Shown one piece after another: positions 22,505-23,517 of a stretch of 64,000 bases of DNA (position 1 is the stretch's first letter; every line of letters starts with the position of its first letter). The stretch is from Escherichia coli (GTDB lineage: Bacteria > Pseudomonadota > Gammaproteobacteria > Enterobacterales > Enterobacteriaceae): the NCBI RefSeq assembly GCF_009931435.1, contig NZ_CP043414.1; one strand, given 5' to 3'. The position numbers are program-made.

Positions 22505-23517
22505 TACGTTCAGCACATTACCCCCAGGTCGGATAAGACGCGGCAAGCGTCGCATCCGGCAATGTCTGCCCAGTTCTGGAATCGCGCTTCCATAAAACAA
22601 AAAATCCCTGTCACCATCCTCTACATTCTCTTGTTTAGCGTTTTTCTACGTTTATTCTTCCGTCACACAGATAAATTCATCCGTTGCCAATCTGTCAACG
22701 GATGTTATCATGTTGCCAATTTGTCAACGGACGTGATGAAGAATGCACATGATAACTCAAAAAGCATTGAAAGATGCTGCGGAAAAATACCCGCAACATA
22801 AAACGGAGTTGGTGGCTCTGGGGAACACGATTGCTAAGGGATATTTCAAAAAACCTGAGTCATTAAAAGCAGTATTCCCTTCTCTGGATAACTTCAAATA
22901 TCTGGATAAGCATTATGTTTTCAATGTCGGGGGCAATGAATTACGTGTTGTAGCAATGGTCTTTTTTGAATCGCAAAAGTGCTACATACGTGAAGTTATG
23001 ACGCATAAAGAATACGATTTCTTTACCGCCGTTCATCGTACTAAGGGGAAAAAATGATTGCGATTGCCGACATCTTACAAGCAGGAGAAAAGCTAACTGC
23101 TGTGGCACCTTTTCTGGCGGGTATTCAGAACGAGGAACAATACACCCAGGCGCTGGAACTGGTAGATCATCTGCTGCTCAACGATCCTGAAAACCCCTTG
23201 CTGGATCTGGTGTGTGCCAAAATAACCGCGTGGGAAGAATCAGCGCCCGAATTTGCTGAATTTAATGCCATGGCTCAAGCCATGCCTGGCGGTATAGCTG
23301 TGATTCGTACCCTTATGGATCAATATGGTTTAACCCTTTCCGATCTGCCGGAAATTGGCAGTAAATCGATGGTGTCACGCGTTTTGAGCGGGAAGAGGAA
23401 ATTAACGCTGGAACACGCTAAAAAACTGGCAACGCGATTCGGCATTTCTCCCGCCTTGTTTATTGATTAACGCGACGTGCCGGATGCGTCGCATCCGGCG
23501 CTTCAAACAACGATTTA

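Follow-up and report, generated by a model that had tools for sequence, protein, structure and literature searches.

The window analysed in this study is a 64,000-nucleotide stretch of Escherichia coli DNA (assembly GCF_009931435.1, contig NZ_CP043414.1), and the subject of this report is a pair of small genes that lies in it between rlmG and fadH. The toxin gene higB (ygjN, 22743-23057, + strand, an open reading frame of 104 codons) comes first and overlaps the antitoxin gene higA (ygjM, 23054-23470, + strand, 138 codons) by 4 bp (ATGA). This is the toxin-first overlapping pair that had been described in an earlier note, made by a model from the sequence alone. We are almost certain that the stretch is the chromosomal higBA (ygjN-ygjM) type II toxin-antitoxin operon of E. 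coli in its intact form, and no evidence contradicts the identification of the two genes as higBA.

The comparison of the predicted proteins with protein families and solved structures carries most of this identification. HigB matched the Pfam family PF09907 (HigB_toxin) over profile positions 2-72 of 74 with 78.9 bits (cutoff 27, E = 3.6e-22), which was the only family reported for it at E <= 0.01; PF05015, the HigB-like family of Rts1 and Proteus vulgaris, gave no match. HigA matched PF01381 (HTH_3, a helix-turn-helix (HTH) family) with 31.8 bits (cutoff 23, E = 1.5e-7) at residues 84-135 of 138, that is, at the C-terminal end, and the Pfam search gave no match for its N-terminal domain. Against the PDB, HigA was identical at 138/138 residues to chain B of 5IFG, and the same sequence is found in 6IRP, 6JQ4, 6KML and 6KMQ, while HigB was identical at 103/104 residues to chain A of 5IFG, with L3M as the sole difference. 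On the evidence of Pfam, PDB and the RefSeq annotation, the 104-aa HigB is a ribosome-dependent mRNA interferase toxin in an L3M variant, and on the evidence of the HTH match and the PDB identity the 138-aa HigA is its antitoxin and repressor. The HigBA of Shigella flexneri (PDB 5YCL) is nearly identical as well (phmmer E = 3e-64 for HigB and 7e-85 for HigA), although the crystallised constructs are a few residues shorter.

A megablast search against 5,426 complete E. coli genomes gave the same picture, with the region annotated as rlmG / higB / higA / fadH and with the RefSeq labels higB and higA beneath the match in thousands of genomes. The nearest relative of the allele was that of strain 2017-02-2CC (99.9% over 1,081 bp). 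The record of K-12 MG1655 lists fadH (b3081), higA (b3082, 'antitoxin/DNA-binding transcriptional repressor HigA'), higB (b3083, 'ribosome-dependent mRNA interferase toxin HigB') and rlmG (b3084). The K-12 locus, to which the earlier note had pointed for comparison, shares with the window its neighbours, gene order, 4-bp overlap, promoter and two operators, whereas K-12-type alleles are approximately 98% identical over 1,081 bp and differ in the control region at 22695, 22712 and codon 3 of HigB.

The locus also has several of the properties by which type II systems are defined. The two small genes lie in one operon on the same strand; the proteins, by their identity to the chains of the solved 5IFG complex, would form an antitoxin-toxin complex; and autoregulation through operators at the promoter is predicted here at the level of sequence, with functional support from the literature. 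According to the definition of Christensen-Dalsgaard et al. (quoted in PMC2814082), higBA is a RelE-homologous mRNA interferase encoded toxin first, and this is what we found.

Studies of the K-12 allele have already covered much of its biology. For example, ygjNM was renamed higBA in PMC2814082, and the toxicity of HigB, its translation-dependent cleavage and the dependence on Lon were described there in K-12. In the same work, one promoter was mapped by primer extension, and the operon products repressed a promoter-lacZ fusion, as did HigA on its own; the legend of its Fig. 1B marks putative -10 and -35 boxes and presents inverted repeats in three promoter regions as putative protein-binding sites. 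The toxicity of the toxin alone and its rescue by the antitoxin have been published for K-12 (PMC2814082, PMC11980606). According to a later review by the discoverers, the palindromic sequences to which HigA and HigBA bind lie in the promoter (PMC11980606), and the E. coli HigB-HigA O1-O2 repressor sites are mentioned in PMC12266136. The literature for the K-12 allele thus extends to toxicity, neutralisation, translation-dependent cleavage, the start site, autorepression, Lon dependence, structures of the complex and palindrome binding. The checks that the earlier note had proposed, namely the binding of HigA to the palindromes, the comparison with K-12 and the toxicity of higB alone, are already published for that allele.

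On either side of the pair, the open reading frame listing gave a + strand frame that ends at 22458 and a - strand frame of 672 codons at 23515-25533. The former, read mechanically as a 481-aa frame (21013-22458), over-extends rlmG; the annotated RlmG has 378 aa (21322-22458) and starts with MSHLDNGF.

Promoter and operators

Two palindromes upstream of higB had been quoted in the earlier note, and both occur exactly as written, CCGTTGCCAATCTGTCAACGG at 22681-22701 and TGTTGCCAATTTGTCAACGG at 22711-22730. The first belongs to the operator O1 (22678-22704), a 27-bp near-palindrome, CATCCGTTGCCAATCTGTCAACGGATG, which is centred at 22691 and has 13-nt arms with 2 mismatched pairs. The second, a 20-mer, is off-centre relative to the symmetry axis of the operator O2 (22712-22733), which consists of the core GTTGCCAATTTGTCAAC (22712-22728) and a conserved GGACG; the symmetric core has 17 bp, 8-nt arms, 1 mismatch and its centre at 22720. 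O1 and O2 form a 26-nt direct repeat (88% identical) with a spacing of 29 bp, and their core consensus is GTTGCCA-N3-TGNCAAC. When up to 3 mismatches were allowed, the 20-nt motif GTTGCCAATNTGTCAACGGA was found at 2 sites in the whole window, O1 and O2 only, where 0.02 were expected. The identification of higBA with two palindromic HigA operators is borne out at this locus and agrees with the published K-12 locus.

The consensus scan gave a single promoter on the + strand, of the sigma-70 type (22684-22711), with the -35 hexamer TTGCCA (22684-22689), a 16-nt spacer and the extended -10 element TG-TATCAT (hexamer at 22706-22711). It matches the consensus at 10/12 positions, has the upstream TG, and sits within and between the operators. 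The -35 hexamer lies inside the left arm of O1, which covers it, and O2 starts at the base directly 3' of the -10 hexamer; therefore, O2 should span the start site. We infer that transcription would begin at about 22718-22719, inside O2.

The promoter region was aligned with that of the uncharacterised rlmG-higBA-fadH locus of Kluyvera georgiana, which resembles the E. coli locus in synteny, the 4-bp overlap and a low guanine-plus-cytosine (GC) content at third codon positions (GC3). The O1 core is conserved there as GTTGCCA-N3-TGGCAAC and the -10 hexamer as TATGAT, and the Kluyvera locus has also kept the leader as far as the ATG and the 29-bp operator spacing. In O2, TTGCCAATTTGTCAACGGAC (22713-22732) shows no difference between the window, K-12, E. 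whittamii and Kluyvera. In contrast, the DNA further upstream has diverged with insertions and deletions: the AT-rich region that precedes the operators (22562-22677, + strand) is indel-rich, poorly conserved and not alignable with that of Kluyvera. The operators are thus under constraint.

Related systems show a similar arrangement. The HigA of E. coli and Shigella has an N-terminal part for dimerisation and toxin binding and a C-terminal HTH (PMC7160566). Salmonella Typhimurium SehA-SehB (STM4031-STM4030.S) is likewise toxin-first. Its antitoxin SehB has 46% identity to E. coli HigA and is organised into the same domains; as a dimer, SehB binds DNA in which two palindromes lie on the -35 and -10 boxes (PMC7160566). 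However, SehA-SehB is a paralogous member of the family from another locus. The paper on SehAB in PLoS Pathogens (2013; PMC3868539) is listed as retracted, and later work on SehB cites it for the two palindromes, so this comparison should be made with care. HigB-HigA of the Proteus vulgaris plasmid Rts1 shares the name, the toxin-first order, a ribosome-dependent toxin of the RelE superfamily, and operators O1 and O2 that overlap the -35 and -10 boxes (PMC12266136). It differs in that its toxin belongs to PF05015 'HigB-like', whereas E. coli HigB belongs to PF09907 (PMC11980606), and in that the HTH is N-terminal in the P. vulgaris HigA but C-terminal in the K-12 HigA (PMC6987408). The P. vulgaris operators have been reported to be distinct from the E. 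coli O1-O2 sites (PMC12266136).

Flanks, polymorphism and origin of the module

As the earlier note had stated, the module is richer in AT than its neighbours. The GC content is 0.387 in higB, 0.482 in higA and 0.414 in the upstream region 22562-22742, which is free of repetitive extragenic palindromic (REP) elements, against 0.535 in rlmG, 0.568 in fadH and 0.516 in the whole window; the GC3 of higB is 0.40, against 0.63-0.65 in the flanks. Low GC3 is also seen in Kluyvera georgiana (L007 3001-3728), with values for E. coli and Kluyvera of 0.40/0.44 in higB and 0.475/0.49 in higA and of 0.63-0.75 in the flanks. Such a lack of amelioration is not what one would expect of a segment that has long been resident.

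The module had also been described as flanked by REP elements, and this is partly borne out, with a canonical REP pair on the left side only. A REP pair lies downstream of the rlmG stop (22474-22561), with a + strand REP at 22474-22507 that matches the REP consensus at 34/34 positions and an inverted partner that ends in GCGTCGCATCCGGCA (22547-22561) and contains the 14-mer of the REP tail (22547-22560). The pair is present in strains with an empty site too; therefore, it is not a marker of the module's arrival and is part of the host's intergenic DNA rather than of the module. On the right side, the 44-nt gap between the convergent stops of higA and fadH holds a short GC-rich hairpin (23474-23504; fold -22.6 kcal/mol, z -3.2), which consists of a REP head and its inverted copy and falls short of a full REP; Kluyvera georgiana has no such REP-derived hairpin after higA. 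The hairpin has no T-run and was not called as an intrinsic terminator, and it is probably a stabiliser of the 3' end or a bidirectional barrier to transcription. Elsewhere in the window, the REP consensus was matched at 854-887, 25810-25843 and 40369-40402, and long near-palindromes are centred at 6850, 12641, 15482 and 40341, which are probably REPs or terminators.

Among the 5,426 complete E. coli genomes, the rlmG-fadH interval occurs in three states. A query of the promoter and the 5' region of higB (22600-22990) was found in 2,822/5,426 genomes and a query of higA (23060-23465) in 4,371/5,426, each with at least 80% of the query covered. By subtraction, the module is intact in approximately 52% of the genomes (2,822), reduced to an orphan higA in approximately 28.5% (about 1,549), and absent in approximately 19% (about 1,050).

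The orphan-higA allele (Nissle 1917, H19 and others) lacks 325 bp (22655-22979, with a boundary ambiguous by 1 nt), which contain O1, the promoter, O2 and codons 1-79 of higB, and it keeps the first 93-94 bp of the AT-rich upstream region. The junction was identical and higA was full-length in 5/5 sampled strains, and the orphan HigA protein was identical to that of the window in 3/5. An orphan higA at fadH-rlmG had been noted earlier in CFT073 and NRG857c (PMC7232551). The consensus scan found no sigma-70-like promoter upstream of the orphan higA of Nissle 1917 (L002 1500-2260), and transcription may reach it from rlmG by read-through across the REP pair. Compared with the window, the orphan higA of E. 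coli TW10590 (L011 489-905) differs by 7 nonsynonymous and 11 synonymous codon changes, against 0-1 nonsynonymous changes in the other four alleles, and the gene may be under relaxed constraint in the TW10590 lineage; five strains are too few for such a count to show purifying selection. It could be proposed that selection preserves the orphan HigA for an independent function, as a transcription factor elsewhere or as protection against incoming HigB-type toxins, or that the low GC3 is itself selected, and we consider such explanations rather doubtful.

The empty-site allele lacks 939 bp (22562-23500) between two 14-nt direct repeats, GCGTCGCATCCGGC, at 22547-22560 and 23486-23499. The repeat is the REP tail, its second copy lies in the hairpin at 23474-23504, and the empty allele keeps exactly one copy; the junction was the same in 3/3 sampled strains. 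This structure fits a loss by recombination or slippage between REP-derived repeats, and the absence alleles look like deletions. The RlmG protein WP_000018671.1 is common to Nissle 1917, which has the orphan higA, and to AR_0114 and 405, which have the empty site. This would be compatible with a single lineage in which the intact module decayed first to an orphan higA and then to an empty site.

These data bear on the origin of the module, which the earlier note had regarded as an acquired but domesticated addiction module. The low GC content and the variation in presence and absence agree with that view, while the synteny with Kluyvera, the lack of a near-identical copy on a genuine plasmid or phage record and the deletion-like absence alleles do not. 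In its stronger form, the view would be that a mobile addiction island arrived recently by horizontal transfer into a REP cluster and has persisted since its loss kills the cell. In favour of it are the GC content and GC3 of higB, the absence or decay of the module in approximately 48% of complete E. coli genomes, the abundance of HigB-family toxins on plasmids (1,058 records), and the 14-nt direct repeat around the 939-bp indel, which can be read as a target duplication. However, the module occupies the same position between rlmG and fadH in Kluyvera georgiana and E. whittamii. The identity between Kluyvera georgiana and the window is 79.8% for HigB and 83.3% for HigA, of the same order as for the flanking genes (89.2% for RlmG and 88.5% for FadH). 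Because synteny is kept with a divergence only somewhat above that of the flanks, old residence is favoured over recent acquisition. Moreover, no integrase, transposase or other mobility gene adjoins the module, the empty allele has the left REP pair as well, and the RlmG allele shared by Nissle 1917, AR_0114 and 405 suggests stepwise deletion. The frequent natural loss of the locus, even of higB alone, shows that it is not effectively addictive over evolutionary time. We consider a recent arrival as an addiction island unlikely.

In plasmid and phage records, no near-identical copy of higBA was found on a genuine record, and the relatives were almost all less than 45% identical. The only plasmid copies of at least 99% identity were in NZ_CP141089.1 (PLSDB, 4.94 Mb), which is apparently a chromosome mislabelled as a plasmid, and this explains the single plasmid match. 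A contig search for relatives, made with exact 8-residue peptide seeds in one genome per species, gave four matches, among them Escherichia sp. E1V33 (99%), E. whittamii (97%) and Kluyvera georgiana (80%); with such a design, the four matches are no proof that the module is lacking in Salmonella, Citrobacter and other genera. The species representative of E. coli was not returned by these seeds, and it may carry a decayed allele. A 99%-identical fragment of higB on the 474-bp contig NZ_SBHZ01000041.1 of Pseudomonas khazarica TBZ2 (coverage 0.7) is almost certainly contamination.

Differences from the K-12 allele and the action of the module

Three single-nucleotide polymorphisms (SNPs) separate the window from K-12 in and around the control region. 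Position 22695 in O1 is T in the window and G in K-12, where G gives a perfect 9-3-9 palindrome; the T is common and is also found in E. whittamii, E1V33 and the O157-like strain 319, and the G in strain 2452 and Kluyvera. At position 22712 in O2, the window has a G in place of the A of K-12, E. whittamii and Kluyvera; the G improves the symmetry of O2 and is present in a small lineage. Position 22749 is A in the window and C in K-12, which changes codon 3 from CTG to ATG (HigB L3M) and makes a second in-frame ATG at 22749, with GAAGA 7 nt upstream. The 61-nt haplotype of the window at 22700-22760 was found in 0/5,426 complete E. coli genomes, and the alignment showed that L3M is the difference. 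The exact L3M HigB protein occurs on 19 public contigs; therefore, it is a rare natural variant. We believe that the three SNPs (O1 G>T, O2 A>G and HigB L3M) would leave the function unchanged.

The alternative is that the module is functionally altered in the source strain, in that L3M, the ATG at codon 3, a weaker O1 or a stronger O2 symmetry change expression or toxicity relative to K-12. The absence of L3M from the complete genomes, the second ATG with its upstream GAAGA, and the two operator substitutions could all be cited for it. However, L3M is a conservative change at the extreme N-terminus, the exact protein recurs as a natural variant, the T allele of O1 is common in other strains, and both open reading frames are intact. 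An altered module is, in our view, quite improbable.

A perfect 10-bp inverted repeat, GTTATCATGT / ACATGATAAC (22704-22713 / 22747-22756, 33 nt apart), was also seen here, which spans the edge of the -10 element and O2 and codons 2-5 of higB. Relative to K-12, the SNPs 22712 A>G and 22749 C>A each convert a mismatch of this repeat to a pair. We considered a single quasi-palindrome template switch as the origin of both SNPs and rejected it as the main explanation: they lie in opposite arms, and their distributions differ, 22712 G being found in a small lineage and 22749 A in 0/5,426 complete genomes. The co-pairing is probably a coincidence, and the first arm (22704-22713), which overlaps the -10 element, is probably not transcribed.

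Some caveats apply to the reading of the locus as an intact, autoregulated higBA operon. The scan of HigB and HigA with the NCBIfam hidden Markov models gave no family at E <= 0.001 for either protein; RefSeq presumably names them HigB and HigA by other rules. The T at 22695 breaks the perfect O1 palindrome of K-12, and the O2 substitution and L3M are further departures from that allele. O1-quality palindromes are rare (6 in the window, 0.77 in shuffles), but those of O2 quality occur at chance level (24 in the window, 27.4 in shuffles); therefore, the signal above chance is the duplicated motif together with its conservation in Kluyvera, and not the palindromy of each site. The direct binding of HigA to the palindromes rests on secondary citations. 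Finally, the chromosomal copy may serve in stress response, phage defence or addiction, and a role in addiction by post-segregational killing is shown neither in this analysis nor in the cited literature.

The chance-level frequency of O2-like palindromes and the secondary nature of the binding evidence would also suit the view that the palindromes are chance or REP-like repeats or the sites of another regulator, with autoregulation through different DNA, but this is hardly credible for a motif that occurs twice here and nowhere else in the 64 kb, brackets the -35 and -10 hexamers, is retained at the same spacing in an ortholog despite the divergence of the intergenic DNA around it, bears no relation to the REP consensus, is stated by the review to be bound by HigA and HigBA, and has a counterpart in the two palindromes bound by the homologous SehB.

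For the intact higBA operon, we propose the following mode of action. The single sigma-70 promoter (TTGCCA-16-TATCAT) would transcribe higB and then higA, and the translation of the two genes may be coupled through the 4-bp ATGA overlap. As shown for K-12, HigB is a ribosome-dependent mRNA interferase that cleaves translated mRNA, and HigA neutralises it; HigB belongs to the RelE superfamily, and HigA binds it by its N-terminal domain. A HigA dimer may occupy each palindrome through its C-terminal HTH domains; with O1 over the -35 hexamer and O2 between the -10 hexamer and the start codon, RNA polymerase would be excluded and the operon would repress itself. In K-12, Lon degrades HigA when translation is inhibited or amino acids are short, and the promoter is derepressed and HigB freed. 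For the allele in the window, this scheme would follow from the near-identity to the K-12 protein pair and from the same operator geometry.

The operon, the mechanism of its toxin, its structures and its palindromic operators are known and have been published since 2009, and the locus carries little weight as a discovery. The descriptive gain is modest and lies in two results. One is that a syntenic ortholog, although diverged, has kept the operator cores at the same spacing. The other is the quantified polymorphism of intact, orphan-higA and empty alleles, with two precise deletion junctions, which may be useful to those who use the presence of higBA as a lineage marker or who ask why orphan antitoxins persist.

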